Notes: a model not told the origin generated them from the letters alone. Counted from the stretch's first letter, positions 12,914 through 36,850 are shown. The stretch: 64,000 nt of DNA from Candidatus Campbellbacteria bacterium (GCA_024653945.1 JANLIT010000002.1:146508-210507), one strand, 5' to 3'. Numbers and translations are program-made.

Positions 12914-12963
12914 CAAGAAAAAGAAGAAGACAGGCAGAAAAAAATATGTATAATTGGTCAGTC

Positions 12964-17294: not shown

Positions 17295-17363
17295 GATGTT
17301 GGAAGTTGGTGATTTGTCCAAGTACTCTAATTGTAGTTTGAACTGGTATACTTTTGGTATGGT

Positions 17364-19951: not shown

Positions 19952-19958
19952 AAACACT

Positions 19959-19981
19959 GAACTTTTGCAGAACAAAAGTTC
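19959..19981. repeat. GAACTTTTG-cagaa-CAAAAGTTC palindrome (inverted-orientation copy of the pilB/pilC upstream element)
   Basis: The reverse complement region tccgtacctgaacttttgttctgcaaaagttcag matches 33494-33529 and 35436-35467. Confidence 0.65.
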
Positions 19982-20018
19982 AGGTACGGAATGAGTTTTG
20001 CTTCTCAAAAAACTCTCG

Positions 20019-20038
20019 CCTGCCTGCCGGCAGGCGGG
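20019..20038. repeat. REP-like palindrome, degenerate copy (cctgcctgccggcaggcggg)
   Basis: One mismatch relative to the 20-nt consensus. Confidence 0.6.
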
Positions 20039-20133
20039 GAGCCCGATGAGGGCGAGAGGGAGTGCTTTTTCAGTAGAAAAAGACACGTGTTTTTGGGAAG
20101 CAAAACGAATGTAGAGTTTTCCACAGCCATCCA

Positions 20134-20163
20134 TTGACAGGTGAACGACCGTTCACCTATACT
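20134..20163 (+). promoter_or_regulatory. Sigma70-like promoter (TTGACA-18-TATACT) with embedded LexA/Cheo-type box GAACGACCGTTC
   Basis: ttgacaggtgaacgaccgttcacctatact is 40 nt upstream of the small ORF that precedes lexA. GAAC-N4-GTTC is the Gram-positive-type SOS box. Confidence 0.65.
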
Positions 20164-20204
20164 TATAACCAACAAAAGGTTATAGGTAACTAACAATTAT
20201 TCAT

Positions 20205-20399
20205 ATGAAGTACCAAGACTACATACAATATATAGATAAAGAGATTGAGGCCCTTAACTGGACTATTGATGAAAAAATAATGCAAGGAATTTCGTATCGT
20301 TCTGAAGCAAAGAGACACAAAGAGCTGATACGGTGGGCACGACGCAATCGTCGTCCATCACTTTTTAAAAGACTTTCATCAGTCATGGCACTCTTTTAA
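20205..20399 (+). CDS. Small basic protein co-transcribed with lexA
   Basis: 64 aa. Its stop overlaps the lexA start (TAATG). It lies downstream of the SOS-box promoter. Confidence 0.45.
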   Translation: MKYQDYIQYIDKEIEALNWTIDEKIMQGISYRSEAKRHKELIRWARRNRRPSLFKRLSSVMALF

Positions 20400-20971
20400 T
20401 GCTTACCGAGTACACACAAAAACTTCATTCGTTTTATGAAAAGAATAAACGAATGCCAACGTATACAGAGATGGCGAAGCTTTTCGGTTTTAAATCTAAA
20501 AACGCAGTTTTTAAAGTTGTTGAAAAACTTGTTGAAGCGGGTGCAGTAACCAAAGATTATCTCGGACGTCTCACACCAACAATGCTCTTTGGTGAAGTAA
20601 AAATGCTCGGCTTCATTGAGGCGGGTATTCCGTCACCAACAGAAGAACACGAATTTGATTCTCTTACGCTTGATGAGTGGCTCATCAACGATCACAATGC
20701 GACATTCATTCTTAAGGTAAAAGGGGACTCCATGGTGGACGCGGGAATTTTTGAAGGAGATTTCGTACTTGTTGAACGCACCGACACATGGAAGGTGGGG
20801 AATATTGTGGTTGCTGACATTGATGGGTTGTGGACACTCAAATATTTACGTCGTAATGCAGAGGGCTACTATCTCCAACCGGGAAACAAAAAATATCAGA
20901 ATATCTATCCCCAAGAGGAACTCAAAATTGGTGCAGTGGTCCGCTCGGTGATTCGACGGTACGAAAAATAG
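20399..20971 (+). CDS. lexA: LexA repressor
   Basis: N-terminal winged HTH, Ala-Gly-type linker, S24 peptidase domain with GDSM (catalytic Ser) and Lys (VGNIVVADIDGLWTLK). Confidence 0.85.
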   Translation: MLTEYTQKLHSFYEKNKRMPTYTEMAKLFGFKSKNAVFKVVEKLVEAGAVTKDYLGRLTPTMLFGEVKMLGFIEAGIPSPTEEHEFDSLTLDEWLINDHNATFILKVKGDSMVDAGIFEGDFVLVERTDTWKVGNIVVADIDGLWTLKYLRRNAEGYYLQPGNKKYQNIYPQEELKIGAVVRSVIRRYEK

Positions 20972-21007
20972 CCAAGCCCTCCACAAGACTCTAACAGGGT
21001 TGACACA

Positions 21008-21028
21008 GTATACCCCATGGGGGTATAC
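21008..21028. promoter_or_regulatory. CsoR-type operator (perfect palindrome GTATACCCCATGGGGGTATAC) overlapping the -10 of a TTGACA/TATACT promoter
   Basis: A GC-rich ATACCCC..GGGGTAT dyad like known CsoR operators. Sits directly upstream of csoR-copA. Confidence 0.65.
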
Positions 21029-21039
21029 TGCTTTTATAT

Positions 21040-21306
21040 ATGCATACACACATACATAAAAACGTTGAAAACCGTCTCAAACGTATTGAGGGGCAAGTTC
21101 GTGGTTTACAGAAAATGGTTGTAGAGGGTAAGTACTGTATTGATGTTATTACCCAATCATCGGCCATCAGAAATGCACTTGCCTCGGTGGAGGACTTAAT
21201 GTTGCAAAACCACTTGACGCAACACGTAGTGCACCAGATGAAACACGGCAAAGAAACGAAGGCGGCACAGGAGATTCTCAAAGTGTACAAACTCAAACGA
21301 AAATAA
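21040..21306 (+). CDS. csoR: CsoR/RcnR-family metal-sensing repressor (DUF156)
   Basis: 88 aa. [40 protein letters not shown]...H...H fits the C-H-C copper-sensing helix-bundle layout. Confidence 0.75.
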
Positions 21307-21311
21307 TTTTT

Positions 21312-23669
21312 ATGGATACTACAAAAACATACAACATAAAAGGAATGCACTGTGCGTCATGCGCAGCAATTATTGAGAAAACCTTTAAGAAAACAGACGG
21401 TGTTACATCCGTACAAGTAAACTATGGCACAGAAACCGCAAAAGTTTCTTTCGATGAGTCAAAAACAAACCCAACAGATCTTTCAAAGAAGATAGAGCCA
21501 CTCGGATACTCTCTACGCTTGCCAGATAGCCCGAGTGTGAAAGAAACGAGTCCCGTTAGAGGCCGCGAAGACATGGAGCGGTCTTCTGACTCTAATGGGA
21601 TGGGAATGTCTGAGGATGAACATTCGGCACATCTCGGTCTTAATCAATCCAAAAAAGAGAAATTGGCAGAACTGGCTGACATGAAAAGTAAAATTATTTC
21701 AGTTATTCCACTTACCATCATCAGTACCATCATTTTAGTGTGGGATATTGTTGCGCGATTTAACTCAGGCGCCGCAATGCCGGAGTTTTGGAGTGAATTC
21801 TTTCACCACCTACTTCCTATAATGGCGACCTATACACTTTTTGTTGTAGGACAGCCATATCTTCTTGGTTTTTACAGATTTCTTCGTTATGGCAAAGCAA
21901 ACATGGATACGCTTATCGGTATTGGTACGTCCGTGGCGTTCCTCTACAGTTTTATTGTTACTGCGTTTGAAGAAACATTACGACCATTCATTAATGTAGA
22001 TAATACGTACTATGACGTTACCATTATTGTTATTGCCTTCATTGCATTTGGTAAATATCTTGAGGCGCGTTCAAAATTAAAGACAGGAGATGCGATTGAA
22101 AAACTTCTCAATTTGCAGGCAAAAACAGCACTCGTGATTCGTGATGGAAAAGAAATAGAGATTCCGGTGAATGAGGTGAAACACGGAGACGTACTTGTCG
22201 TAAAACCCGGCGCAAAAATTCCTGTTGACGGGACAATCATGGAAGGCTCTTCGTTTGTGGACGAGTCCATGGTGACAGGAGAGCCGATGCCTGCACAGAA
22301 AAAAGTGGGGGATAGTGTTGTTGCTGGAACCATTAATACCACAGGTTCATTTACATTCACCGCAACAAAAGTTGGCTCGGAGACACTGCTTGCTCAGATT
22401 ATTCACATGGTTGAAGAGGCACAGGGAAGCAAGGCACCGATTCAGGCACTCGCAGATAAGATATCTGGTGTCTTTGTCCCAATTGTGCTCGTTATTGCCT
22501 TCGTAACTCTGGGTACATGGCTTCTTGTGGGGACACAATACCTCGGATTCTCACAAGCACTTTCATTTGGGCTCGTGTCGTTCGTGGGAATTTTGGTGAT
22601 TGCGTGTCCGTGCGCACTAGGGCTCGCAACGCCGACGGCAATTATCGTTGGAGTGGGCAAAGGTGCAAAAGAAGGTATTCTTATTAAAGATGCAGCAACA
22701 TTAGAGAAATTACATAAGGTGGATACGGTTATTGTGGACAAAACAGGAACCATCACCATTGGAAAACCAACACTTGTTGATATTCAGAATTTCTCAAAAA
22801 TGTCAGATGATGAACTTGTATCACTTCTTGCATCACTTGAGAAAAAATCAGAACATCCTATTGCACACGCAATTGTGTCGTATGTACAAGATAAGGCTAT
22901 TAGTGTTGAAGATGCTTCAAATTTTGAAGGAATTCAAGGAAAGGGTGTGACGGCAACGGTCAAAGGAATTCAGTACTATGCGGGAAATGTAAAATTGATT
23001 TCAGACCTCGGCACTTCTTTTGATGCTTCAAAAATTGAAACGTTTACCGCGCAAGGAAAAACTCCAGTTATTCTTGCGACGAAAGAGAGCGTTCTCGGGT
23101 TTGTTATGGTTGCTGATGAAATAAAAATAGAATCAAAACAGGCAATTGCAGATCTTCACAAACTCGGAATCAAAGTGGTGATGCTCACCGGAGATGATGA
23201 GAAGGCGGCGAAATACATGGCATCTCTTGTTGGTATTGATGACGTGGTAGCACATGTGTTGCCACAGGACAAGTTGGCAAAAATAAAAGAATTGCAGTCG
23301 CGGGGACGTATTGTTGCTATGGCAGGAGATGGAGTGAATGACGCACCGGCACTTGCTCAAGCGGATGTTGGTATTGCGATGGGTACAGGAACTGATGTTG
23401 CCATAGAATCAGCAGGCATTACGCTTCTTGGTGGAGATATCTCAAAGCTAGTGAAAGCAATTAAGCTTTCAAAGATGACCATGTGGGGAATCAAGCAAAA
23501 CTTGTTCTGGGCGTTTATTTACAACATCGTTGGTATTCCACTTGCTGCAGGAGTATTTTATCCAGTTTTTGGATGGCTACTCTCTCCGGTGTTTGCTGGT
23601 TTTGCGATGGCAATGTCTTCAGTGTCTGTGGTATCAAATTCCTTACGAATTAAAACTAAAAAATTATAA
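21312..23669 (+). CDS. copA: Copper-translocating P1B-type ATPase
   Basis: N-terminal HMA ([12 protein letters not shown]), CPC in TM6 ([12 protein letters not shown]), DKTGTIT phosphorylation site, [10 protein letters not shown]. Confidence 0.9.
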
Positions 23670-23682
23670 GTAATTAAAAAAT

Positions 23683-24306
23683 ATGAATAATAAAATTATT
23701 TTTGGAATCGGAGGAATCATTGCCGGCCTCCTGCTGGCGTTCATTCTTACACCTGGGGGTTTTTTCGGGTACCGTACCGCAGGATTTAGAATGATGGGCT
23801 TTGATACTGAAGGCGTAGGGAATACCCAAGTGATGAATGGTATTGATAGACATTTTATTGAACAGATGATACCGCACCACGAGGGAGCCATAGCAATGGC
23901 TACCCTTGCACTACAAAAGGCAGTGCATCCAGAAATTAAAACATTGGCGCAGGCAATCCTTGTGGCCCAAACAAAAGAAAATGTAGATATGAGAGTATGG
24001 TACGGAGAGTGGTTCGGTACAGATGCCCCCGAGAACACCCTTTCCATGATGGGGGGGATGATGTCACAAAGAGGAATGCATATGGGTGGGCAGGAAGATA
24101 TAAACAAACTGAACACTGCCGCAGATTTTGACAAGGAGTTTATTGAACAGATGATACCGCACCACCAAATGGCAATTATGATGGCACAGATGCTAAAAGC
24201 TGGGACCAGCAGACTGGAAATGTTAACTCTTGCAAATAATATTACCGAATCGCAGTCAAAAGAAATAGAACAAATGGAAAGTTGGTATAAGAGTTGGTAT
24301 AAGTAA
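23683..24306 (+). CDS. DUF305-family protein (copper-resistance associated, two repeats)
   Basis: Signal/TM followed by two FIEQMIPHH..AI.MA repeats. Confidence 0.7.
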   Translation: MNNKIIFGIGGIIAGLLLAFILTPGGFFGYRTAGFRMMGFDTEGVGNTQVMNGIDRHFIEQMIPHHEGAIAMATLALQKAVHPEIKTLAQAILVAQTKENVDMRVWYGEWFGTDAPENTLSMMGGMMSQRGMHMGGQEDINKLNTAADFDKEFIEQMIPHHQMAIMMAQMLKAGTSRLEMLTLANNITESQSKEIEQMESWYKSWYK

Positions 24307-24349
24307 AATTATATAAGTTAAGATTATTAGATTAATTAAAGAACTTATT

Positions 24350-24571
24350 ATGAAACTATCTAAATTAATGCATGTCGTCAGTGTTATCGTGGGGTTTGTC
24401 GGAATCATAGTGTTTGCAGGTGCCATTCTAGGTGGGTCGGATAATTTGGTTTTTGGAATTACAAAAGTGGGTGCTCTACTCTGTGCCGGAATTCTTATTC
24501 TTATAGCAATTTGGTTTGCGATTGCAACAATTCATCACACGATGCTTGAGAAGCGAGGAGGAATTGTTTAA
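24350..24571 (+). CDS. Small membrane protein (2 TM)
   Basis: 73 aa, hydrophobic. Confidence 0.4.
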   Translation: MKLSKLMHVVSVIVGFVGIIVFAGAILGGSDNLVFGITKVGALLCAGILILIAIWFAIATIHHTMLEKRGGIV

Positions 24572-24589
24572 TAGATTAATAAAAATTAT

Positions 24590-24853
24590 ATGGAACTATC
24601 ATTAAAAAAATATGGTTGGAAATGTGTACTTGGCTCGGAGGTTATCTACGTTATTTGTCTTCTTGGGGGGTATATTCCATGGCGTTCAGAAGTAGCCACC
24701 GAATTACACCACCGTTTGTTTGAAACTCTCCCCGGTTTTGTGTGGGGAAATTCTAGCAGTATTGTTCTTGGTGCGGTGTATATGTTTGTCTTTGCTTGGA
24801 TATTTGGGAGTTATATGGTCTGGATGCACAATTCAAGTTTAAAGAAGAGCTAG
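24590..24853 (+). CDS. Small membrane protein
   Basis: 87 aa, two hydrophobic segments. Confidence 0.4.
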   Translation: MELSLKKYGWKCVLGSEVIYVICLLGGYIPWRSEVATELHHRLFETLPGFVWGNSSSIVLGAVYMFVFAWIFGSYMVWMHNSSLKKS

Positions 24854-24870
24854 AGTACCCGCTTGACTAC

Positions 24871-24889
24871 TATACCCCGTGGGGGTATA
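24871..24889. promoter_or_regulatory. Second CsoR-type operator (TATACCCCGTGGGGGTATA) within a TTGACT/TATAAT promoter
   Basis: cttgactactataccccgtgggggtataatg has 8-bp arms identical to the csoR operator. Confidence 0.6.
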
Positions 24890-24912
24890 ATGAACTTCAA
24901 TATGAATATGAA

Positions 24913-25332
24913 ATGAATATGAATTCTCTGTTTAAAAAAAATATAGCCATCATTGTTCTGGTAGTATTTTCAATGCTGGTTCTTTTCAGTTTTGGTGTGG
25001 TGGCACATGAGTCGGGGAAACAAATGACGGGCGACTGCCCCTTCTCAACGGCGGGAGCCACCATTTGTCCACAAGATGTACTTTCGGTGGCCATTCACCA
25101 CATCTCTGCGTATAATTCGTTTTTTAATGTACCAACAAGTTTTGGATTGACCGCACTCATTATTTCTGTGTTGTCGGTAATCGCCACTCTGTTTGTTATT
25201 TCCCCGCGGTTACAGCTACCGAGTCGATTGGTTTTTGCCCATACTGTACACACCTCTCCCACAGTCAATTCATATACTAGGAAAATAATTCAGTGGCTGT
25301 CTCTTTTTGAAAATAGCCCCTCCCGCACCTAA
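24913..25332 (+). CDS. Hypothetical membrane protein downstream of the second CsoR box
   Basis: MNMNSLFKKNIAIIVLVVFSMLVLFSFGVVAHE...CPFSTAGATICPQD. The upstream part of the ORF track entry overlaps the promoter and was trimmed. Confidence 0.45.
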   Translation: MNMNSLFKKNIAIIVLVVFSMLVLFSFGVVAHESGKQMTGDCPFSTAGATICPQDVLSVAIHHISAYNSFFNVPTSFGLTALIISVLSVIATLFVISPRLQLPSRLVFAHTVHTSPTVNSYTRKIIQWLSLFENSPSRT

Positions 25333-25430
25333 AAGCACTTAAAAAGTCTAGCTTTTTAAGTGCTTTCGACTCGCGCATGCATCGCGGGTTTTTGTATTAC
25401 AAAATACTACTCACTTCTAATCTACAAATT

Positions 25431-25946
25431 ATGAAACCACAAACAGTTATTATCACAGTCCTTGCATTCGCCACTGTTATAGGTCTTCTTGTTGTCGGCT
25501 ATAACAAAAACGGAAACGCAGCAGCATCTGTACAAGGTGTGTCAGCGGTTACAGGAGAAAGTGGACTCACTGTGTCTGAAACCCTCTATGATTTTGGCAC
25601 AATATCCATGAAAAATGGAAACGTAACAAAAGATTTCACACTTACTAACCCGACCGATGCAGATATTATGGTTGGTCGTGTTGAAACGTCATGTATGTGT
25701 ACAGCTGCATATATTGTTGAACCGGATGGAACCAACAAGGGACCGTTTGGTATGCCGGGACACGGAGGTGCGGTTCCTCCAGCAAATGAAATAATCCCAG
25801 CAGGAGAAAGTCGCATCATTCGTGTTGTGTATGACCCAAATGCTCACGGTCCAGCAGGTGTTGGAAAAATTGACCGTTTCATTACCATCACAGATTCTGC
25901 AAACCAATCTATTCGTATTGAAGTTAAAGCTGTAGTAACCCCATAG
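25431..25946 (+). CDS. DUF1573-like secreted protein
   Basis: Signal anchor followed by FGTISMKNGNVTKDFTLTN...VETSCMCTAA, which resembles the DUF1573 S-C-x-C-T motif. Confidence 0.45.
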   Translation: MKPQTVIITVLAFATVIGLLVVGYNKNGNAAASVQGVSAVTGESGLTVSETLYDFGTISMKNGNVTKDFTLTNPTDADIMVGRVETSCMCTAAYIVEPDGTNKGPFGMPGHGGAVPPANEIIPAGESRIIRVVYDPNAHGPAGVGKIDRFITITDSANQSIRIEVKAVVTP

Positions 25947-25950
25947 TCAT

Positions 25951-26730
25951 ATGAAAAAACTTATTATTAGTATTGGGGTGGTGCTCATCGCACTTAGTGC
26001 GGTTGTTGTTCTGAAGTACAGTCCCGGATTCTCAACATTCCTATGGAACGCGAGCAATGGCGGTGTCTGGCTCCTGCCTCTTGTTGGTTTTTCGGCGCTT
26101 CTTGACAGTGTGCATCCGTGCTCATTCTCGATTTTGCTCATCACTATTGCGTTTCTCTTTGGTCTACAAATGACCAGAAAGAAAATTCTCCAGATTGGTG
26201 GATTCTACATTGCTGGAATCTTTGCCGCGTACTTTACGATTGGCATCGGTATCTTGAAGGTCATCCACATCTTCAATGTGCCGCACTTTATGGGGAAACT
26301 TGGGGCAGCGCTCCTTATTATCTTCGGAATACTCAACCTCCTCGGCGCGCTCTTTCCGAAGTTCCCTATAAAACTCAAACTTCCTGACGCTGCGCACGGG
26401 GCGATGAGTAAACTTATTAACACCGTCTCCGTGCCAGCAGTGTTTGCTCTCGGATTACTAGTTGGACTCTGTCAGTTTCCATGTATGGGTGGTCCGTACC
26501 TTATGGTTATTGGTCTTCTGCATGACCAAGTTACCTACTTCTCAGGTCTTGGATATCTCCTCCTCTACAATGTGATTCTCGTTGTACCACTTGTAGCGAC
26601 CCTTTGGATTGCTGCAAATCCAACACTTATCGACAAAATTATGCTGTGGAAAAAAACCCAAATGAAAGACGTTCATCTGTGGGCGGGTATTGCAATGATT
26701 ATTATCGGCATCCTAGTACTTTTCATCTAA
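25951..26730 (+). CDS. ccdA: CcdA/DsbD-family thiol:disulfide transporter
   Basis: 6-8 TM. Conserved Cys in TM1 (VHPCSFS) and TM4 (CQFPCMGGP). Confidence 0.65.
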   Translation: MKKLIISIGVVLIALSAVVVLKYSPGFSTFLWNASNGGVWLLPLVGFSALLDSVHPCSFSILLITIAFLFGLQMTRKKILQIGGFYIAGIFAAYFTIGIGILKVIHIFNVPHFMGKLGAALLIIFGILNLLGALFPKFPIKLKLPDAAHGAMSKLINTVSVPAVFALGLLVGLCQFPCMGGPYLMVIGLLHDQVTYFSGLGYLLLYNVILVVPLVATLWIAANPTLIDKIMLWKKTQMKDVHLWAGIAMIIIGILVLFI

Positions 26731-26731
26731 T

Positions 26732-27121
26732 ATGACATTTCTCAAGAAAGTCTGTCCGGTGTGCACGCTCGTAGCTCTCACATGGCTTTCAATGTTTGTG
26801 TTCAAGGTACTTGGGTATGCCGTTAATAATGAGCTCCTTGCGATGCTCATGGGCGGTAGTGTGGTTGGTATCTCGTACACACTTGCCGCACGACTGCGAC
26901 CTGTCTTTCATAAACCAGTGACGATGTATTGGAAGCTCATTACAATCCCTCTCGGGTTTATAGCCATGTATGCGACTTTACAGTTTATGTGGTGGTATAC
27001 CGTCGGGGCAGTAGGTATATACGCTCTTGTGTGGGCGGTTTTCAACGGTATGTTTACCGCAACGGAGAAGGGGGAACATTTAGAAGACATTACTAAAGCA
27101 TTAGATACGTGTTGTGAATAA
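26732..27121 (+). CDS. Hypothetical membrane protein with CPVC motif
   Basis: 129 aa, 4 TM. N-terminal CPVC and C-terminal CC. Confidence 0.4.
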   Translation: MTFLKKVCPVCTLVALTWLSMFVFKVLGYAVNNELLAMLMGGSVVGISYTLAARLRPVFHKPVTMYWKLITIPLGFIAMYATLQFMWWYTVGAVGIYALVWAVFNGMFTATEKGEHLEDITKALDTCCE

Positions 27122-28070
27122 TTATATGGAAGAAACAAAATACACAGAAGAAACTATAGTAAACAATCCAGCACCTCGCAGTGGTTCAAATCCAATACCA
27201 CTCGCAATTCTTGTTGCTGGAGTTCTTATCGCTGGTGCAATGTGGTTCAGAGGTACTGGTGGAGTGGGTCAACTTCAGGCGACAGGTGACAAAGAAGTAA
27301 ACAGTCAAGTGTTGGCTTTTGAAGAGTCAATTATTCCATCGGAAGGTGTTGTCTTACCAGCAACGTGGGGTGATCTTGGAGCAAAACTTGTCAGTGTTGG
27401 TGCAATTGATGTTGAAAAATTAAAGACAACCTATGATCAGAGGGGCGCACTTCCAGAGGGATTTAATAAACTTCTCCTTGAACAAAACAATGGCAAGTTA
27501 AAAATAACTCGTGAGAATTCCGCCTATCTTCTCAATCTCTTATGGGCGCTCGGGCTTGCAAGCGATAATTCTATTTTGGAATCAGGAGAAATGTCTGACC
27601 CGAAGTATGGTGGTGCACAAAACTTTACTTCAACCGCTGGTTGGACAATTGCACAAGGTAACCCAATGGACCACTACAGCAAACATAGATTCTTCAATCT
27701 CACACCAGAGCAACAGGCACTCGTAGACAAAGTATCGCGGGGCATATTCCGTCCATGCTGTGGAAACTCCACACATTTTCCTGACTGCAATCACGGCATG
27801 GCGATGCTCGGCCTTCTTGAACTGATGGCATCACAAGGTGTGAGTGAAGAAGACATGTACAAAGCAGCTCTTGCAGTCAATTCGTACTGGTTTCCTGATA
27901 CCTATCGTACCATTGCGACATACATGAAAAACAAAGGTATCGCATGGGCGAATGTGTCTCCATCAGAAGTGCTTGGTGCACAATACTCGAGTGGTACGGG
28001 ATACGCAAAAATTAAGGCACAAGTTACACAACCACAACAGCAACAAGGTGGAGGTGGGTGTAGTGTGTAG
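27114..28070 (+). CDS. Hypothetical membrane-anchored protein with CCGNSTHFPDCNHG motif
   Basis: 318 aa, one N-terminal TM, C-terminal Gly run. Possible metal-binding Cys/His cluster. Confidence 0.45.
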   Translation: MNNYMEETKYTEETIVNNPAPRSGSNPIPLAILVAGVLIAGAMWFRGTGGVGQLQATGDKEVNSQVLAFEESIIPSEGVVLPATWGDLGAKLVSVGAIDVEKLKTTYDQRGALPEGFNKLLLEQNNGKLKITRENSAYLLNLLWALGLASDNSILESGEMSDPKYGGAQNFTSTAGWTIAQGNPMDHYSKHRFFNLTPEQQALVDKVSRGIFRPCCGNSTHFPDCNHGMAMLGLLELMASQGVSEEDMYKAALAVNSYWFPDTYRTIATYMKNKGIAWANVSPSEVLGAQYSSGTGYAKIKAQVTQPQQQQGGGGCSV

Positions 28071-28155
28071 TTTGCTTAAAAAGCAACCATTGCACGTTGT
28101 AAAAAGTTGGATATCCAACAAAAACTTCTTACCAATAATATAGTGCTCTATACCT

Positions 28156-28443
28156 ATGCATATTCACGATGAAAAAAATAATAGTGGCATGATGTGGATG
28201 ATGGTGCTCTGTTGTGTTCTACCACTTCTTCTTATAGTGATTTTTGGTGCGGGTGGAAAAGCAATCGGTGCTCCAACGTGGTTTATTTTTGGTGGAATTA
28301 TAGTGATGGTGGTGATTCACTTCGTTATGATGAGAAAATCACACAAACATTCTGATGAACAGCATGAAGTAACTGATACAAACAACAAGAAGCAAGATAC
28401 CAAAAACGATGCGGGTCATTCTGGACACAGCTGCTGTCACTAA
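28156..28443 (+). CDS. Small membrane protein with His/Cys-rich tail (HSGHSCCH)
   Basis: 95 aa, two TM. Metal-binding-like C-terminus. Confidence 0.45.
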   Translation: MHIHDEKNNSGMMWMMVLCCVLPLLLIVIFGAGGKAIGAPTWFIFGGIIVMVVIHFVMMRKSHKHSDEQHEVTDTNNKKQDTKNDAGHSGHSCCH

Positions 28444-28446
28444 TAG

Positions 28447-28668
28447 TTGTTAAAAACAAATACTATGGAAAACAGAGTTAAATCACTAATTAAAAAGCTG
28501 AGTAGATTTGGGTTTAGTGTAAAAGAAAAAGATCGTATTGATCCTGTGTGTGGAATGAAATCAACAAGCGATTTATTTGAGAGCGACTATCGGGGTAAAA
28601 TATATTATTTTTGTTCCGAACACTGTAAAAACCAATTCGATGGCAATCCAAGCACGTATGTAAAATGA
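28447..28668 (+). CDS. YHS/TRASH-domain metal-binding protein
   Basis: DPVCGMKS...YYFCSEHCKNQF is a YHS-domain Cys pattern. Confidence 0.7.
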   Translation: MLKTNTMENRVKSLIKKLSRFGFSVKEKDRIDPVCGMKSTSDLFESDYRGKIYYFCSEHCKNQFDGNPSTYVK

Positions 28669-28669
28669 C

Positions 28670-29119
28670 ATGGACAAAAAACAGAAGTCAAAAACCTATC
28701 TGTTCGCCATTAGTGCGACCGCCGTACTCCTGCTTGTCTATATAGGTGTAGTTACAGCGGTATCTGGATGGAAATTTGCCCAAGATCAATTTGGAAATTA
28801 CTGGTACTTTCTGGTCAGTTTAGCGGGTGGTTTCGGAGTCCAAGTTGGGTTGTACTCATATCTCAAACAGCTCGTGACAAATGGCGGTATGGTTGTAGGG
28901 GGTAAGATAATGGCTACGACAGGGACAACCTCCACACTCACAATGATTTCTTGCTGTGCACATTATCTAGCAAACATAGTACCAATACTTGGGATTGCGG
29001 GGGTGTTGTCTACCATCGCTCAATATCAAGTTGAGTTTTTCTGGGTTGGGCTTGCTTTCAACGCGCTTGGCATTGTCTTTATTAGCAATAAAATAATTAC
29101 ATACAAAAGACGCGTATGA
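28670..29119 (+). CDS. Hypothetical membrane protein (CCAHY motif)
   Basis: 149 aa, 4 TM. Confidence 0.4.
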   Translation: MDKKQKSKTYLFAISATAVLLLVYIGVVTAVSGWKFAQDQFGNYWYFLVSLAGGFGVQVGLYSYLKQLVTNGGMVVGGKIMATTGTTSTLTMISCCAHYLANIVPILGIAGVLSTIAQYQVEFFWVGLAFNALGIVFISNKIITYKRRV

Positions 29120-29580
29120 GTATAAAAAAATCACTATGGATAATTATGACGATCGCCGCTGTCATTGCGGGGGCTTTTGTGTTCTATAAGAAGCTACCAT
29201 CTCTGCCGGCATCTCCAATTGAAGTTGTCACACCATCTGCAATACATACATGGGAGACAAAGATTGACGAACAGGCCGGCGTGACGGTGTCTGTCACTCC
29301 GGAAATAAACCTGGTAGATTCACAAGAGTGGAAGTTCGACATTATTATGGATACCCATTCGGTTGAGTTAGATCAGAATATGACCGAAGTTGCTGTGCTT
29401 GTCGATGACTTTGGAAATGAGTACGGTCCAACTACATGGGAGGGTGCGCCAGTAGGAGGTCACCACCGAGGAGGTGTTCTTGTCTTTACTCCGATTGTGC
29501 CGTATCCACAACATTTGAAATTAAATATACAAGGCGTTGGTGGCGTGCAAAGATCGTTTTCGTGGATTCTGACCGAATAA
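29116..29580 (+). CDS. Hypothetical secreted protein
   Basis: 154 aa, N-terminal signal anchor. No recognisable family. Confidence 0.4.
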   Translation: MSIKKSLWIIMTIAAVIAGAFVFYKKLPSLPASPIEVVTPSAIHTWETKIDEQAGVTVSVTPEINLVDSQEWKFDIIMDTHSVELDQNMTEVAVLVDDFGNEYGPTTWEGAPVGGHHRGGVLVFTPIVPYPQHLKLNIQGVGGVQRSFSWILTE

Positions 29581-29632
29581 CGTTATAGATGCGAGCGTCA
29601 TGCTGGTGCGTTTTGTGGTACAATGACGCACT

Positions 29633-30667
29633 ATGGCAGATTTAAATCAAAAAAAGTACACATTTCATGTTCATGGAATGCACTGTAAAGCATGTGTGCT
29701 TTTGACGGAAGCCGAACTAAAAGAATTGCCTAACGTGTCGTATGTAAAATCAAGTCTTACCAATCATTCAGTTGAAGTGGTGGGGGATTTTGGTGACAAA
29801 ACACCAGAGCAAATTGCGCAGGAATTGACCATTCCATTGAAAGCAAGTGGGTACATCGTGTCGGTTGAACGACAAGAACACACAGCAATATGGAGTGATT
29901 TTAAAATCGCGATTCCAATAGCACTTGGGTTTGCGGTGCTCTTTGTTCTGTTACAAAAGGCAGGACTGGTGAATCTTATCAACGCAAATGGCGTGTCGTA
30001 TGGAACGGCATTTGTTATTGGTATTGTTGCATCGCTCTCAACATGTATGGCAGTTGTTGGGGGACTCCTCCTCTCTATGTCTGCAACGTTTGCCAAGGAG
30101 GGAGACAAGATTAAACCACAACTCATGTTTCATGGCGGGCGCATTGTTTCATTCTTTCTTCTCGGTGGGGTTATTGGTGCGCTGGGATCGGCATTTACAC
30201 TCGGTACAATGGGAACGTTTATTTTAGGTCTCCTTGTTGCACTCGTGATGCTCATTCTCGGCATCAATCTTCTCGATGTATTTCCATGGGCGAAAAAGTT
30301 ACAACTATCAATGCCAGCATTTATAGGGAAGCATGCGCACGGTATTTCAAAATTCAATCACACACTCACACCACTTCTCGTTGGTGTTGCAACATTCTTT
30401 TTGCCGTGTGGATTCACACAGTCAATGCAGTTGTATGCACTTACAACAGGAAGTTTTATGAGTGGGGGACTCACCATGCTTGCCTTTGCCCTCGGTACAC
30501 TACCAGTTTTGACACTCGTGAGCTTTAGTTCATTTAGTATTAAAAATAGTTCAAAATCGGGCATCTTCTTTAAATCAGCAGGACTTATTGTTATTATGTT
30601 TGCACTGTTTAATCTCATTAACAGTCTTGTGGTCATCGGTCTTATTCCACCAGTTTTTAGCTTCTAG
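29633..30667 (+). CDS. Heavy-metal-associated (HMA) domain fused to a polytopic membrane domain (DsbD_2/UreH-like)
   Basis: N-terminal GMHCKAC HMA motif. 6-8 TM with conserved Cys (STCMAV, FLPCGFTQ). Confidence 0.6.
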   Translation: MADLNQKKYTFHVHGMHCKACVLLTEAELKELPNVSYVKSSLTNHSVEVVGDFGDKTPEQIAQELTIPLKASGYIVSVERQEHTAIWSDFKIAIPIALGFAVLFVLLQKAGLVNLINANGVSYGTAFVIGIVASLSTCMAVVGGLLLSMSATFAKEGDKIKPQLMFHGGRIVSFFLLGGVIGALGSAFTLGTMGTFILGLLVALVMLILGINLLDVFPWAKKLQLSMPAFIGKHAHGISKFNHTLTPLLVGVATFFLPCGFTQSMQLYALTTGSFMSGGLTMLAFALGTLPVLTLVSFSSFSIKNSSKSGIFFKSAGLIVIMFALFNLINSLVVIGLIPPVFSF

Positions 30668-30674
30668 TATCCGT

Positions 30675-31064
30675 ATGAACAAACTCACACTTCTGTCATT
30701 CGTTATTGCCGGCGCACTTATCTTTTTTGCGTTCACTTTCTCTAAATCAAACCCACTTCCAAATGATGTTCCAGAAAACAACGTTTCAATTGTGGATGGG
30801 GTTCAGGTTGTTGAAATTCTTGCAAAAGGAGGATACTTTCCTGAAAAAAGTGTGGCAAAGGCAGGTATTCCAACTATTTTGCGTCTCAAAACCAGCGGTA
30901 CGTTTGATTGTTCATCAATAGTCCGTATTCCGAGCTTGAATATCACGAAAAATCTGCCACCATCGGGAGGTCTTGATGTGGACCTCGGAAGTCCAAAAGC
31001 CGGAGTGATGCAGGGAACATGTGGTATGGGTATGTACCCATACGAAATTGATTTTCAAGAATAA
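30675..31064 (+). CDS. Secreted protein, possible cupredoxin-like copper-binding domain
   Basis: Signal anchor then a small beta-rich domain with C...GTCGMGMY. The cupredoxin_1-like assignment is tentative. Confidence 0.35.
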   Translation: MNKLTLLSFVIAGALIFFAFTFSKSNPLPNDVPENNVSIVDGVQVVEILAKGGYFPEKSVAKAGIPTILRLKTSGTFDCSSIVRIPSLNITKNLPPSGGLDVDLGSPKAGVMQGTCGMGMYPYEIDFQE

Positions 31065-31135
31065 TTTAATTATTTTCTGGTATATTCTGCACATAATTTT
31101 GAAAAAAGGTATGTGCGGGATATACTCTCTCTGTT

Positions 31136-31678
31136 ATGGAAACAATCCCCTATCCAATCATTAATACGCTCATCATGCTCGGCATTGCCGTGCTGCAGGT
31201 GGCATCTCTTACACTTTTGCTCGGATTGCTCAACGTGCGTGGGTTTTCTTCTGTGGTTTCGTTTGTCCGCTCTCGTGGAATGACCATTTCGTTTCTTATT
31301 CTTTTCGCGTCATTTATTGGTAGCTTGTACTACTCAGAAATTGCTGGTTTTCCAGCATGCTCGCTGTGTTGGTATCAGCGAATTCTTCTCTACCCGCAAC
31401 TTATTCTTTTTGGCGCCGCGTTGTGGAAGGGAAGACAGGATGTGTTTTTGTACACCAACACACTTTCGGCTGTTGGGTTATGTATTGCGCTGTACAACAT
31501 TGCCATTCAAACATTTCAAACAGTTTCCACTTTTTGTGATCCAGGAGGATTGGCCGTGTCATGTCTTCAAAAATATGTTATTGGGTACGGATACATTACT
31601 ATTCCGGTGATGTCAGCAACGGCTTTTGCACTTCTTCTTCTTATTGGTTGGGCAATGAGCCCCAAAATGGACAAGTAA
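31136..31678 (+). CDS. dsbB: DsbB-family disulfide bond formation protein (BdbC-like)
   Basis: 4 TM. CSLCWYQR in the first periplasmic loop and a second Cys pair (CDPGG..C). Confidence 0.75.
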   Translation: METIPYPIINTLIMLGIAVLQVASLTLLLGLLNVRGFSSVVSFVRSRGMTISFLILFASFIGSLYYSEIAGFPACSLCWYQRILLYPQLILFGAALWKGRQDVFLYTNTLSAVGLCIALYNIAIQTFQTVSTFCDPGGLAVSCLQKYVIGYGYITIPVMSATAFALLLLIGWAMSPKMDK

Positions 31679-31747
31679 GGGTTTTTTGCACTGTGGTATA
31701 ATGATCTTATTAGTACAGTTGTTTTTATTTAATTTCCATATTTATTT

Positions 31748-32410
31748 ATGCACCAAAAAACTATCTGGGTTCTTATTATTGTTATCCTTCTTGCCGGCGG
31801 TTGGTATTTTATGTCGCGTAAGACGGTGGAAGCTCCTAATGACATAGCAACAACAACACGGCAAGGTTCCGTGGGTACGCTCACTGACGGTGTGTACGCA
31901 CTTGATGTAGAGAAAAGTTCCCTTACATGGACGGGAAGTAAGACACTCATTAAAGAATATTTTGACAACGGAACGCTTTCATTCAAGGAAGGGTCTGTAA
32001 TTGTAACGGGGGGCACTCTTGTTGCGGGTTCGTTTGTTGTTGATATGAAGTCATTCAAAACGATTTCAACAAGCAATCAAAAAGTTCCAGGAAGCGCTCT
32101 GGAGACTCATCTCAAATCGGCAGATTTTTTTGATGTTGCAACGTATCCGATTGCAACCGTTGGTATCAAGAGTGTTGAAAACGGCATCGTGAAAGCGGAC
32201 GTAACCATTAAAAATGTGACGAAGGAGGTTTCTTTCCCGGCAACAATTTCACAAGATGGAAAAACACTTTCAGGCACAGCATCACTGACTCTTGACAGAA
32301 CACTGTGGGACATTCGTTACGGTTCAGGCAAATTCTTTAGTGATCTTGGGGATAAGGTTATTTCAGACTCGGTCAAAATTGACCTTACACTCGTTGCGCA
32401 AAGTAACTAG
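31748..32410 (+). CDS. YceI-like family protein
   Basis: Signal anchor followed by a YceI lipocalin-like domain (LTWTGSKTLIKEYFDNGTLSF...DVATYPIATV...GKTLSGTASLTLDRTLWDI). Confidence 0.75.
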   Translation: MHQKTIWVLIIVILLAGGWYFMSRKTVEAPNDIATTTRQGSVGTLTDGVYALDVEKSSLTWTGSKTLIKEYFDNGTLSFKEGSVIVTGGTLVAGSFVVDMKSFKTISTSNQKVPGSALETHLKSADFFDVATYPIATVGIKSVENGIVKADVTIKNVTKEVSFPATISQDGKTLSGTASLTLDRTLWDIRYGSGKFFSDLGDKVISDSVKIDLTLVAQSN

Positions 32411-32526
32411 CACACAAAGAGATTCAATCTCTAAGAACGACACCACCCTCACTGTGTAACATTTTACTGACCTCGGCGTATACTGGAGTAGATAGTACCA
32501 ATATTAAACAACTAACATTTCATTAT

Positions 32527-33387
32527 ATGGAAACAAGTGCAGTACAAAAAGCGGTAAAGTATCTTGGGTGGCTTTGTATCGTTCTCATTATTTTTGTTGG
32601 TGTTTCAGCATTAAATGCTCTTAAAGAAAACCGCTACATTGGCGGAGGGGTTTCTGCGTCTAACGTCATTACCATCAACGGTGAAGGCGAAGTATTTGCG
32701 GTTCCCGATATTGCAGAAATAGGTTTTTCGGTTTTTGCAGAGAAAAAAACACTAACCGAAGCACAGAGTGTATCGGCAGAAAAGATGAATACAATTCTCG
32801 CATTCCTTAAAGACCAAGGAATTGATGACAAAGATATTAAAACGACCAACTACAGTGCAAATCCGAAATATGAATGGACAAACGAAGTAACGCCAATGTC
32901 TAGTGGTTCGTCTGGTGCCGCAGAGCCTGGATATGGTGGTGTGCAAACATCTGTTGTATATCCTGACTACTACCCACGACCACAAAATCAAGTCATTGTT
33001 GGGTATGAAGTTCGACAAACTATTACCGTGAAAATTCGTGATACAGAGAAAGTCGGGGCACTCGTTTCTGGTATTGGTGAGAAGGGTGCGACCGATATCT
33101 ACGGTCCAACATTTACCATTGATGATGAGGTGGCATTGCAACGCGAAGCACGTCAGAAAGCAATTGATGATGCAAAAAATAAAGCAGAACAATTGGCAAA
33201 AGACCTCGGTGTAAGAATCGTGCGCATTGTAAGTTTCTCGGAAAATGGTGGTGGCTACTACCCAATGATGTTTAAGGGTATGGAAGCAACAGTATCAAGT
33301 GATTCTTCAGTTCCACCCGTCCCCCAAATTCCAGTTGGTGAGAACAAAATCACTGCAAACGTTTCTATTACGTACGAAATTCGCTAG
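32527..33387 (+). CDS. SIMPL-domain protein (YggE/DUF541-like, oxidative stress associated)
   Basis: N-terminal TM then ITINGEGEVFAVPDIAEIGFSV ... ITANVSITYEI, the SIMPL architecture. Confidence 0.7.
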   Translation: METSAVQKAVKYLGWLCIVLIIFVGVSALNALKENRYIGGGVSASNVITINGEGEVFAVPDIAEIGFSVFAEKKTLTEAQSVSAEKMNTILAFLKDQGIDDKDIKTTNYSANPKYEWTNEVTPMSSGSSGAAEPGYGGVQTSVVYPDYYPRPQNQVIVGYEVRQTITVKIRDTEKVGALVSGIGEKGATDIYGPTFTIDDEVALQREARQKAIDDAKNKAEQLAKDLGVRIVRIVSFSENGGGYYPMMFKGMEATVSSDSSVPPVPQIPVGENKITANVSITYEIR

Positions 33388-33420
33388 CTCTGCACTCGTC
33401 TCATATTTTGTAGAAGCACG

Positions 33421-33442
33421 AAAACCGCCTGGTGGCGGTTTT
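33421..33442. terminator. Rho-independent terminator nested in a 14-bp long-range inverted repeat
   Basis: aaaaccgcctggtggcggtttt, flanked by tattttgtagaagc ... gcttctacaaaata. Confidence 0.65.
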
Positions 33443-33502
33443 CTCCTTCCAGCGCCGCCGCGCTTCCAGAGGCTTCTACAAAATAGAGACTCACTCCGTA
33501 CC

Positions 33503-33529
33503 CCGAACTTTTGTGTTACAAAAGTTCGG
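33503..33529. promoter_or_regulatory. CCGAACTTTTGTGTTACAAAAGTTCGG palindrome with conserved flank, upstream of pilB
   Basis: ctccgtaccccgaacttttgtgttacaaaagttcggtgaaaataca is near-identical to 35436-35480 upstream of pilC. Confidence 0.6.
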
Positions 33530-33578
33530 TGAAAATACAAGAAGTGCTACAATATACCTAACACCCTAACACCTTTTC

Positions 33579-35327
33579 ATGCACTTTGATTTACAACAAC
33601 TCATTCAGTTTCTTGTTGATACAAAAATGCTTTCCCTTGGTAAGGCGCAAGAACTTGAAAAACGGGCCCTCGAGCAAAAAATGTCGTTTGAGGATCTCGT
33701 TGTGTCCGAGGGAATTATTCCTGAAGATGATTTGCGGAGAGCAAAATCGCACGTTCTCGGCATTCCATTTGTTGATTTAAAGAATGAAAAAATAGATTTC
33801 AAAACACTGTCGCTCATTCCTGAACCGATTGCTCGTTCAAATAATGTTGTTGCATTTCGTGTTACGGGCACAGATTTAGAGGTTGCCATGTTGGATGTGC
33901 AGGACCTTAAGGCAATTGACTTCATAAAAAAGAAAACAGGTCTTAGCATCCTTCCGCGTCTTACCGATGTTGACTCAATAAAAAATGCACTCATTCAATA
34001 CCAACGAAGTTTGAAATTGGAGTTTGGTGATATTTTGAAAAATGAGGCAGCTGCACTTTCTGCTACATCGGGAAGTGTTGGTGAAAATGCCTCTGGAGAA
34101 ACACTCAAAAAGTTAGCCGAAGATCTTCCCGTGGTACGTATTGTTGAAACGCTTATCCGCCACGCGGTTGTTGAGGGTGCATCTGATATTCATATTGAAC
34201 CCATGGAAAAGGATTTGCTTATTCGGTACCGCATTGACGGACTACTTCATGATGCAATGACCTTACCCAAACAGGTTTCGGCCGGAATAGTCGCGCGCAT
34301 TAAGGTGCTTTCCAATTTAAAACTTGATGAAAAACGACTACCACAGGATGGACGATTTAAAATGGACATTGAAAGTGAACGTGTGAGTTTTCGTGTTTCA
34401 ACACTTCCTATTTACTACGGAGAGAAGATTGTGATGCGTATTCTTCACGAAGGCGCATCCGGTTTTACACTTGAAACACTCGGTTTTCACGGAGAAGGAC
34501 TTGAAGCGCTCCATTGGGCAACAAAGCAGGCAACGGGATTGATTCTTGCAACCGGTCCGACTGGGTCAGGTAAGACAACGACCCTGTATACAGTTTTGGA
34601 TATTCTCAACACACCAGATGTAAACATTTCAACCATTGAAGACCCAATTGAGTATCAGATGCCACGGGTAAATCAGACGCAAGTAAAACCAGAAATAGGG
34701 ATGACGTTTGGAAATGGATTGCGCGCACTTGTTCGTCAGGACCCGGATATTATTATGGTGGGAGAAATTCGTGATGGAGAAACGGTCGGACTTGCAATCA
34801 ACGCCGCATTGACCGGACACCTCGTACTCTCAACAATTCACACAAACTCCGCAGCTGGTGCGGTGCCAAGAATGTTGGACATGGGTGCGGAACCATTTCT
34901 TATCGCATCTACGCTCAAGGTCATTGTTGGTCAGCGTCTTGTGCGTGTTCTTGCACGAAAAGAAAAATATTCTCTGTCTGCGGATGAATTAAAAGCGCTT
35001 GGTAAGTCAGTTGACCTTGATCGCATGCTCGGCTTTCTTATAACCGAAGGATTGGTTGCAAAGAACGCAACGTGGAAAGAAGTTCCGTTCTATCGTCCAA
35101 AAGAAGTGAAAGACGGAGATGATGGATACAAGGGGCGTATTGGTATTCATGAGGTGCTTAAGGTTTCAAGTGCACTACGCGAACTTATGATTAAACGTGC
35201 CTCAATGGAAGAAATGGAAAATCAAGCAAAGAGCGAGGGAATGATGACGATGATTGAGGACGGTGTCTTTAAGGCGGTTATGGGTTTGACGACCCTTGAG
35301 GAGGTGTTGCGTGTGGTTACCGAATAA
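33579..35327 (+). CDS. pilB: Type IV pilus assembly ATPase PilB (GspE family)
   Basis: GPTGSGKTTTLY Walker A, Asp/His boxes, N-terminal GSPII_E domain. 582 aa. Confidence 0.9.
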   Translation: MHFDLQQLIQFLVDTKMLSLGKAQELEKRALEQKMSFEDLVVSEGIIPEDDLRRAKSHVLGIPFVDLKNEKIDFKTLSLIPEPIARSNNVVAFRVTGTDLEVAMLDVQDLKAIDFIKKKTGLSILPRLTDVDSIKNALIQYQRSLKLEFGDILKNEAAALSATSGSVGENASGETLKKLAEDLPVVRIVETLIRHAVVEGASDIHIEPMEKDLLIRYRIDGLLHDAMTLPKQVSAGIVARIKVLSNLKLDEKRLPQDGRFKMDIESERVSFRVSTLPIYYGEKIVMRILHEGASGFTLETLGFHGEGLEALHWATKQATGLILATGPTGSGKTTTLYTVLDILNTPDVNISTIEDPIEYQMPRVNQTQVKPEIGMTFGNGLRALVRQDPDIIMVGEIRDGETVGLAINAALTGHLVLSTIHTNSAAGAVPRMLDMGAEPFLIASTLKVIVGQRLVRVLARKEKYSLSADELKALGKSVDLDRMLGFLITEGLVAKNATWKEVPFYRPKEVKDGDDGYKGRIGIHEVLKVSSALRELMIKRASMEEMENQAKSEGMMTMIEDGVFKAVMGLTTLEEVLRVVTE

Positions 35328-35444
35328 CTCTCCACTCGCCTAGATTGCCTCAAAAGCACGCGTCGTTTTCTGCTGAAAACGCGCTCACTCTCGGACTCAC
35401 GTCCTCCGAGAGTCTTTTTCGGCAATAGGCGAGCTCCGTACCAC

Positions 35445-35467
35445 GAACTTTTGTTGTACAAAAGTTC
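35445..35467. promoter_or_regulatory. GAACTTTTGTTGTACAAAAGTTC palindrome with conserved flank, upstream of pilC
   Basis: gctccgtaccacgaacttttgttgtacaaaagttctgtaaaataca. Confidence 0.6.
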
Positions 35468-35531
35468 TGTAAAATACACAGAATCCACCACGTGTGGGTT
35501 TTTTTGTGCGTAACTATGCGATAATGGTGCT

Positions 35532-36743: not shown

Positions 36744-36752
36744 GACAAGAGA

Positions 36753-36850
36753 CATGAAACATGTAACAGGAAACATGTACCATGAAGCATAAAACAAATA
36801 ACAAAACACAAGAATCAAATTGTTACATGGTACATGCTACACGACACATG
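36753..36850 (+). repeat. GTTACATG/CATGTAAC motif cluster spanning the pseudopilin start codon
   Basis: catgaaacatgtaacaggaaacatgtaccatg...ttgttacatggtacatgctacacgacacatg. Confidence 0.6.

Follow-up and report, generated by a model that had tools for sequence, protein, structure and literature searches.

Three intergenic palindromes in a 64-kb stretch of a Candidatus Campbellbacteria genome (the window, i.e., the whole stretch of DNA analysed), two of them upstream of the type IV pilus genes pilB and pilC and the third, inverted, near lexA, are each the 3'-terminal hairpin (helix P4) of a larger folded intergenic element of 154-172 nt (about 155 nt). The original prediction had offered the palindromes as candidate operators of a dedicated type IV pilus/competence regulator or, alternatively, as a shared attenuator/terminator structure. 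We find that the palindrome is probably not a pilus-gene operator. Tentatively, we read the whole unit as a low-copy mosaic extragenic element, similar to bacterial interspersed mosaic elements (BIMEs) and repetitive extragenic palindromic (REP) sequences, that may act structurally in cis from the 3'-untranslated/terminator region of a gene. Patescibacteria are thought to depend, for attaching and for taking up DNA, on machinery resembling type IV pili, and next to nothing is known about regulatory or repeat elements outside the coding regions of their reduced genomes. Here, a well-supported structured element flanks the gene of the pilus motor ATPase and varies among close relatives. If its true action is that of an RNA, it is a new motif; if it is that of DNA, REP-like palindrome biology occurs in a lineage with very small genomes. 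Either way, it calls for caution when promoter-proximal palindromes are called operators without comparative data.

The exact palindrome GAACTTTTG-N5-CAAAAGTTC is found three times in the window, i.e., at 19959-19981, 33505-33527 and 35445-35467, compared to 0.10 expected occurrences, and none of 100 dinucleotide-preserving shuffles reached three. No further such palindrome was found in the window when up to three mismatches were tolerated. Each copy carries the asymmetric flank TCCGTACC on its 5' side, which is on the + strand for the pilB and pilC copies and on the - strand for the third. Most of what had been described around these sites is borne out. The blocks of about 45 nt are near-identical (88% identity between 33494-33534 and 35434-35474) and their palindromes end 51 and 64 nt ahead of the start codons of pilB (33579-35327; Pfam T2SSE and MshEN) and pilC (35532-36743; Pfam T2SSF), with extended -10-like sequences following them (TGCTACAAT for pilB and TGCGATAAT for pilC, both kept in relatives). 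The third copy indeed lies in reverse orientation, behind an open reading frame (ORF) of 115 aa. The palindrome was also rightly said not to be a LexA box, since its GAAC and GTTC are separated by 15-16 nt instead of 4. A genuine LexA-type box (GAAC-N4-GTTC) does exist, although one base off from where it had been placed: it spans 20143-20154, between TTGACA (20134-20139) and TATACT (20158-20163) upstream of lexA, and is conserved in relatives. The LexA protein itself (20399-20971) contains an S24 peptidase domain (Pfam).

The full element follows one order of parts: a 5' box CTCTNCRYTCG, the long stem P1, which encloses P2 and P3, the single-stranded linker CTCACTCCGTACC, and finally P4. A conserved AAAGCACG is located between P1 and P2 (J1/2) and a CUCACUC-like box between P2 and P3 (J2/3). 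One of the enclosed hairpins is terminator-like, i.e., a GC-rich stem followed by a T-run; this is P2 in type 1 and P3 in type 2 copies. The two sense copies of the window, w1 and w2, begin at the first base 3' of the upstream stop codon (33388 after a SIMPL/DUF541 gene and 35328 after pilB, respectively), and all 7/7 sense-orientation copies, including those of the relatives L121, L127, L147 (two copies) and L148, start directly after TAA or TAG. Among the first six copies studied, five are 157-158 nt long (including four upstream bases and a short 3' flank), while the inverted window copy w3 measures 176 nt.

Nine full-length copies from six Campbellbacteria genomes were compared; six were aligned first and then all nine with the covariance model R1. 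They align end to end with nearly constant length, except for a nested insertion in w3. For the six copies, RNAalifold reports 38 base pairs, 19 of them with compensatory changes. In the nine-copy alignment, 95.1% of the cells are paired, compared to 77% for column shuffles and at most 54% for slid partners, and double changes occur at 20 of the 38 pairs; the observed values were reached by none of 500 shuffles. The fold z-scores of the three window copies are given in Table 1. Among paralogues, the P1-P3 stems are only 0.43-0.52 identical with their pairing kept, identity being 0.77 for the 5' box, 1.0 for J1/2, 0.70 for J2/3, 0.80 for the linker and 0.95 for the P4 arms, and the loops are not conserved. 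The P4 loop has 3, 4 or 5 nt without conserved sequence, and the palindrome measures 23 or 24 nt overall. P4 itself shows an internal compensatory change from C-G to T-A in L121, L127 and L147, and the pair that extends its stem base changes from C-G to T-A in w3.

Orthologous copies between pilB and pilC (window, L127, L147) are 81-88% identical. In the flanking pilB and pilC, identity is 0.44-0.73 (mostly 0.55-0.63) at synonymous third positions and 0.46-0.54 at four-fold sites. The element is hence as conserved as constrained coding sequence and is under purifying selection, the alternative being a very local and recent exchange. Taken together, conserved junctions, covarying helices and purifying selection argue for a functional element rather than junk. 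A protein-coding element is ruled out, since indels between orthologues are not multiples of three. Its actual function, and whether it acts at the level of RNA or of single-stranded DNA, is what we infer below.

Table 1. Element copies w1-w3 of the window, their parts, and the adjacent promoter and terminator signals.
Feature	Position	Strand	Context and support
Element copy w1, type 1	33388-33541	+	between stop of SIMPL/DUF541 gene (32527-33387) and pilB promoter; covariance model 157.4 bits; fold -65.3 kcal/mol, z = -9.6
w1 5' box CTCTGCACTCG	33388-33398	+	consensus CTCTNCRYTCG kept in every full copy
w1 P1 (33398-33417 with 33472-33490), enclosing P2 (33420-33443) and P3 (33451-33464)	33398-33490	+	fold and covariation; P2 is GAAAACCGCC/GGCGGTTTTC, terminator-like with T-rich tail
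w1 single-stranded linker CTCACTCCGTACC	33490-33502	+	80% identity among paralogues; unpaired in all folds
w1 hairpin P4, 12-bp stem, loop GTT	33503-33529 (core palindrome 33505-33527)	+	sequence match and fold
Element copy w2, type 2	35328-35482	+	between pilB stop (35325-35327) and native pilB terminator/pilC promoter; covariance model 159.5 bits; fold -56.9 kcal/mol, z = -7.3
w2 P1 (35335-35356 with 35414-35433), enclosing P2 (35360-35384) and terminator-like P3 (35387-35413), then TCTTTTTC	35335-35433	+	fold
w2 linker CTCCGTACC-AC and P4 (35445-35467, loop TGT)	35434-35467	+	sequence match and fold
Element copy w3, type 2, inverted	19945-20116	-	between stop of 115-aa membrane ORF (19604-19951) and lexA promoter; covariance model 135.8 bits; fold -68.1 kcal/mol, z = -9.8
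w3 parts	P4 19957-19983; linker 19984-19996; P1 20090-20106 with 19995-20011; P2 20062-20086; 5' box 20106-20116	-	fold
Second palindrome family CCTGCCTGCCGGCAGGC, nested in w3 P3	20018-20035		explains about 18 extra nt of w3
pilB extended -10 TGCTACAAT	33545-33553	+	context, outside the element; kept in relatives with or without the element
Native pilB terminator hairpin (TCCAC...GTGG and T7 run) and pilC extended -10 TGCGATAAT (35517-35525)	35484-35525	+	context; kept in L121, L127, L129, L130, L147 and L148 whether the element is present or not

The PilB of the window is 100% identical to a protein of a Candidatus Campbellbacteria metagenome-assembled genome (Parcubacteria/Patescibacteria; contig of 238.5 kb); an exact look-up of this PilB returned no record. 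We compared the pilB neighbourhoods of relatives at three sites, i.e., from the SIMPL gene to pilB (site A), from pilB to pilC (site B), and from the 115-aa ORF to lexA (site C, with the element inverted). The loci are L121 (CP064977.1, a complete 811-kb genome, PilB 92%), L127 (93%), L129, L130/L131, L147, L148 (92%), L132 (83%), L123 (82%) and L126 (80%). The genomes are much more diverged than PilB identity implies, i.e., compared to the window, identity is only 46-54% at four-fold sites of pilB and 74% for DNA polymerase III delta. In the window and all Campbellbacteria loci searched, which include a further 20.7 kb of CP064977.1 with a second PilB-like ATPase, R1 matches at sites A, B and C only (Table 2). 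It finds no other copy in the window or in 42 kb of CP064977.1 (about 105 kb in total). Within the window, neither pilM/pilN (9895-11707) nor comEC (47120-48607) has a copy. That is, the copy number is low and local.

Table 2. State of the element at sites A, B and C in the window and its relatives.
Genome	Site A	Site B	Site C
Window	full, type 1	full, type 2	full, type 2, inverted
L121	only linker and P4, after another terminator	full, type 1 (80.5% identity with w1, at site A of the window)	no model match
L127	linker and P4 only	full, type 2	beyond contig
L147	full, type 2	full, type 2	degenerate linker and P4
L148	empty	P1-P3 and two linkers, palindrome precisely gone (CCGTA joined to GGTTAAAATAC)	no 115-aa ORF there
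L129	empty	empty	115-aa ORF missing
L130/L131	empty	empty	full, type 1, inverted

Presence thus varies between genomes. In L123 and L126, sites A and B are both without a copy, and L132 lacks one at A and has no pilC after pilB. The element is modular, i.e., the P1-P3 module, the linker and P4 are each present or absent separately. Paralogues within one genome are only 58-65% identical overall. The -10 sequences TGCTACAAT and TGCGATAAT are kept wherever pilB and pilC are present, and the native pilB terminator is kept in the relatives with 92-93% PilB identity. Since promoters and pilB terminator are kept with or without it, the element is an accessory unit, inserted between the stop codon of the gene before it and signals that were already in place. 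In L147, cassettes about 8 nt downstream of P4 part it from pilB and pilC by kilobases.

These observations bear directly on the operator question. A double-stranded operator would have a dimeric transcription factor on the GAACTTTTG/CAAAAGTTC arms that controls pilB, pilC and possibly lexA or the 115-aa ORF. The strong conservation of the arms with an unconserved centre agrees with this, as does the low, local copy number, which fits a small regulon. Furthermore, the centre of the window's pilB copy lies about 44 nt ahead of the inferred transcription start, and other perfect palindromes of about 22 bp in the window look like true operators. These are AGTATACCCCATGGGGGTATACT (21007-21029), just upstream of a CsoR-like/copper P-type ATPase operon (21040-23669), and GTATAGTAACATATGTTACTATAC (17144-17167), immediately ahead of an HTH_17-Fic/Doc gene pair (16460-17139, - strand). 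We nevertheless consider an operator quite unlikely. Fixed half-site spacing, a fixed position relative to the promoter and conservation together with it were not observed: the spacer varies in length (23 vs. 24 nt overall, loops of 3-5 nt), the distance from palindrome centre to -10 ranges from 32 to 67.5 nt, and promoters are kept without the site. The latter holds for five relatives that lack the palindrome there, i.e., L129, L130, L123 and L126 keep the -10 sequences of both pilB and pilC and L132 that of pilB. In L148, where the promoters are kept as well, the palindrome is missing ahead of pilB, and P4 is lost from the copy ahead of pilC. In L147, the kilobase-sized cassettes separate palindromes and pilus genes. 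A conserved terminator hairpin lies between palindrome and pilC promoter, and the third copy abuts a stop codon and lies ahead of the lexA -35, separated from it by about 150 nt that include hairpins. The one-sided conserved flank of 13 nt is unusual for a symmetric operator, and no copy accompanies pilM/pilN, comEC or the gene of the second PilB-like ATPase of CP064977.1, i.e., other pilus/competence operons do without. Finally, the block is part of a larger covarying structure that starts at the upstream stop codon.

The alternative of a shared attenuator or terminator, also contained in the original prediction, comes nearer to the evidence. P4 itself is not a sense-strand terminator in w1 and w2. 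A terminator scan calls neither 33505 nor 35445 and reports only the inverted copy, on the - strand, such that P4 was rejected as an intrinsic terminator. Like intrinsic terminators, the element has a GC-rich hairpin with T-run (P2 in type 1, P3 in type 2) directly after a gene. It differs from them in its AT-rich P4 without sense-strand T-tract in w1 and w2, in its far larger size and in its conserved unpaired boxes.

Given these results, we tentatively prefer the BIME/REP-like mosaic with a structural role in cis, a reading held with reserve. The element occupies the 3'-untranslated/terminator region of the upstream gene, i.e., of the SIMPL-family gene, of pilB and, inverted, of the 115-aa membrane ORF. 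It has a terminator-like hairpin and is located upstream of the next gene's own promoter. Its likeliest mode of action is through nucleic-acid structure in cis, whereby it would form or stabilize the transcript 3' end and insulate the next promoter. P4 and linker would constitute a module that is recognized sequence-specifically by some protein.

The likeness to REP sequences and BIMEs, which are known from enterobacteria and pseudomonads, lies in a short (23-27 nt), near-perfect palindrome with a one-sided flank: the element's conserved CCGTACC (with GTAC) is found 1-4 nt from the P4 stem, where REP/BIME have the tetranucleotide GT[AG]G (REP GTAG). Both are extragenic, located directly 3' of stop codons, found in both orientations, mosaic with other motifs and variably present among relatives. 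In contrast to REP, which are dispersed in dozens to hundreds of copies, only 2-3 copies of the element were seen, all in one neighbourhood, within the 64 kb of the window and 42 kb of CP064977.1. Its palindrome is AT-rich and part of a 155-nt unit with a fixed covarying four-helix architecture, and no REP-associated tyrosine transposase (RAYT, HUH Y1) was found among the Pfam-scanned ORFs of the window. Enterobacterial repetitive intergenic consensus sequences/intergenic repeat units (ERIC/IRU) and Correia-type elements, both similar to miniature inverted-repeat transposable elements (MITEs), also resemble it: they measure about 100-160 nt, are closed by a long imperfect inverted repeat, lie in transcribed intergenic regions, fill or leave empty orthologous sites depending on the genome, and may carry terminator or promoter signals. 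The element differs from them in P1 arms that are not conserved, the lack of a clear target-site duplication, strongly diverged copies and a low copy number. A MITE proper was rejected, since the P1 arms differ completely and covary, and CACTC-like flanking direct repeats are exact in only 3/9 copies (by inspection).

Several observations weigh against the BIME/REP-like reading. At site C (window, L130, L147), the element runs opposite to the genes on either side; a strict sense-strand RNA function is therefore impossible there unless the hairpins work either way. G.T pairs (7) do not outnumber A.C mismatches (10), and therefore nothing singles out one of the strands as RNA. Predicted terminator T-runs precede the 3' strand of P1, the linker and P4, all of which would be transcribed only by read-through. 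The copies seen are few and all located between lexA and pilC, which is unlike the distribution of true REP/BIME, and no REP-associated transposase or recombinase was seen among the window ORFs (Pfam). Finally, template-switch correction can produce compensatory changes in DNA palindromes even where no selection acts. The inverted site C, the missing wobble bias and the parts beyond the T-runs thus preclude a confident RNA call.

The element could also be selfish. In that case, a mobile palindromic mosaic, with P4 as a REP-like unit and P1-P3 as a separate cassette, would be moved by a trans-acting enzyme or by recombination without benefit for the host. We regard this as unlikely. The modules are indeed separable (linker and P4 upstream of pilB in L121 and L127, degenerate linker and P4 at site C of L147, P4-less copy in L148) and type 1/type 2 P1-P3 modules swap among the three sites, e.g., w1 (site A) and the site B copy of L121 share 80.5% identity. 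In addition, w3 harbours a palindrome of a second family, and wobble pairs show no strand bias. However, with paralogues only 58-65% identical there was no recent burst, and since the P1 arms differ between copies they are not terminal repeats of transposase type. Conservation between orthologues far exceeds that of synonymous sites, about 105 kb contained no copy beyond the one neighbourhood, and no transposase was seen in the window.

Two readings put the element at the RNA level. First, it could be a new functional structured RNA of the Candidate Phyla Radiation, tied to pilus motor genes, whose three-way junction, conserved junction nucleotides and invariant hairpin would sense a ligand or protein or self-process and thereby set the upstream 3' end or the read-through into pilB and pilC; to this we assign a small chance. 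Second, and very unlikely in our view, it could be a new cis-regulatory RNA, i.e., a riboswitch-like or protein-binding leader in which the P1-P2-P3 three-way junction would respond to a signal and thereby regulate read-through from the upstream gene into pilB and pilC. Such RNAs classically combine helices that covary with unpaired junctions that are conserved, as is the case here (AAAGCACG, CUCACUC, CUCACUCCGUACC), and the sense orientation upstream of pilB and pilC as well as purifying selection fit. It would be new, having no Rfam match: at the three sites, an Rfam search (E <= 10) returned sub-threshold chance matches only, and the matches above gathering threshold in the window are tRNAs only. 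Of the generic traits of cis-regulatory RNAs, covariation and conserved junctions are present while the orientation is inconsistent. The element is located ahead of the conserved promoters of pilB and pilC, not within their 5' leaders, P4 lacks a sense-strand U-tract in w1 and w2, the third site is inverted, G.U pairs are not in excess on the sense strand, and close relatives dispense with the element.

The remaining known systems were compared and set aside. The LexA (Cheo-type) SOS box shares the inverted GAAC and GTTC tetranucleotides but has them at a spacing of 4 nt vs. 15-16 nt here, and a canonical box is separately present at the lexA promoter. An integron attC site, in which R''/R' core sites (RYYYAAC...GTTRRRY) close one bulged hairpin and which is found in cassette arrays with an integrase, was rejected by inspection, given ends (CTCTNCRYTCG, GAAC...GTTC) that are not complementary core sites and a branched structure; neither the window nor the loci tables of the relatives showed an integrase. 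A sigma-70 promoter in the block (-35 inside P4, -10 TAAAAT) would have a poor -35 and a spacer of 13-16 nt, and TAAAAT is absent at site C. Sites of extracytoplasmic function (ECF) sigma factors (GAAC-N-GTT), the ComX cin-box, hix/res and dif-type recombination sites, as well as target hairpins of diversity-generating retroelements (DGRs), domain V of group II introns and nut-like boxA/boxB were set aside, by inspection, for their spacing or sequence. As for a DNA uptake sequence, only 6 half-sites occur in 64 kb, compared to 1.5 expected. We found no literature on such an element.

Among the matches listed, scans of genome contigs, metagenomes and viruses showed no relative of the element. 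Scanning genome contigs for the bare palindrome yields at least 120 loci with an unrelated terminator hairpin of gut and rumen Clostridia, located after tRNA genes and with the same arms (aaaaag-GAACTTTTGtctacCAAAAGTTC-ctttttt). None of the 120 Clostridia-type loci listed (L001-L120) has the CCGTACC flank. The Clostridia hairpin GAACTTTTGtctacCAAAAGTTC (e.g., L005 80-102), flanked by A- and T-runs, adjoins tRNA genes in more than 120 metagenome-assembled genomes and is usually followed by a highly conserved TTATCCAAGCCGCAGGCTTGGTATATCATC. Its nucleotide conservation across species suggests either a mobile element end or a conserved tRNA-operon terminator, unrelated to the Campbellbacteria element. 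Metagenome scans gave no match for GTACC-N1-2-GAAY... and 14 matches for GAAYTTTTGT-N4-ACAAAARTTC, all unrelated. Of two viral scans, one returned 43 chance matches in coding regions, none with the palindrome, and the other none at all; in these scans there is hence no phage or attachment (att) site link. A homologue search with the probably spurious ORF 62695-63459 returned nothing.

Some further observations concern the element's parts and neighbours. The palindrome nested in w3 belongs to a family of short palindromic repeats, CCTGCCTGCCGGCAGGCAGG, found at 17275-17294, 20019-20038 (within w3 P3), 57524-57543 and 59219-59238. Two of its copies, in opposite orientations, have common asymmetric flanks GAAGTTnGnnGTTA ... 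GATGTTGGAAGTTGG. The family was not seen in the fetched relatives and may therefore have been mobile recently in this genome. A J1/2 box with a type 1 P2 hairpin (CAAACACG-AAAACCGCCaactGGCGGTTTTTT) stands alone at 58668-58709 as a simple terminator upstream of a TTGACA promoter and is 79% identical to 33401-33442; this lone copy suggests that the element is built on a common terminator module.

The flanks of pilB are hot spots of accessory DNA in relatives. In L147, the interval from the SIMPL gene to pilB contains a DGR (bAvd and reverse transcriptase) and a 217-aa gene (5574-8107), and that from pilB to pilC a 209-aa gene (10259-10888); in L132 a bAvd gene follows pilB (8387-10585). The window has an Avd-like gene of the '23S rRNA intervening sequence protein' type at 56329-56760. 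L132, which is element-free, carries a different perfect hairpin, CCCAGCACATAAC-TAC-GTTATGTGCTGGG followed by TAAAAG (6345-6385), directly upstream of the pilB -10 TGCTACAAT; this could be an analogous structure with unrelated sequence. In the window, the pilB leader ACCTAACACCCTAACACC has no Shine-Dalgarno sequence, and pilC, which starts about 7 nt downstream of its -10, may be leaderless. The lexA unit begins with a conserved 64-aa ORF (20205-20399) without Pfam match whose stop overlaps the LexA start codon, and the arrangement of lexA box and 64-aa ORF is also found in L121, L130 and L147.

The window contains other repeats. Tandem repeats of short period (7 or 14 nt) and of the TACATG/GTTACATGC type are located at 1777-1850, 9491-9550 and 36740-36851; one is upstream of the gene preceding pilM (9547) and one at the junction of pilC and a pilin-like gene; TACATG/TACGTG-like runs also precede pilB in L126. 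Low-complexity, C/A-rich, leader-like intergenic repeats (AAGCACAAAATCCAAAGCACAAAGCTCAAAA; CCAACTTCCAAC, complement TTGGAAGTTGGA) occur at 56339-56369, 58067-58097, 239-269 and 5734-5764, and at 3759-3800, 17295-17310 and 59244-59273. Finally, a block of about 230 nt is duplicated (7814-8043 and 12685-12915), with 131 nt at 89% followed by 95 nt at 77% identity. It spans the upstream regions and bodies of two tRNA-Arg genes (GCG, 7970-8042; TCT, 12842-12914), which have the hairpin AAAAAGAAAACAGGCTTTCTTTTT in common.

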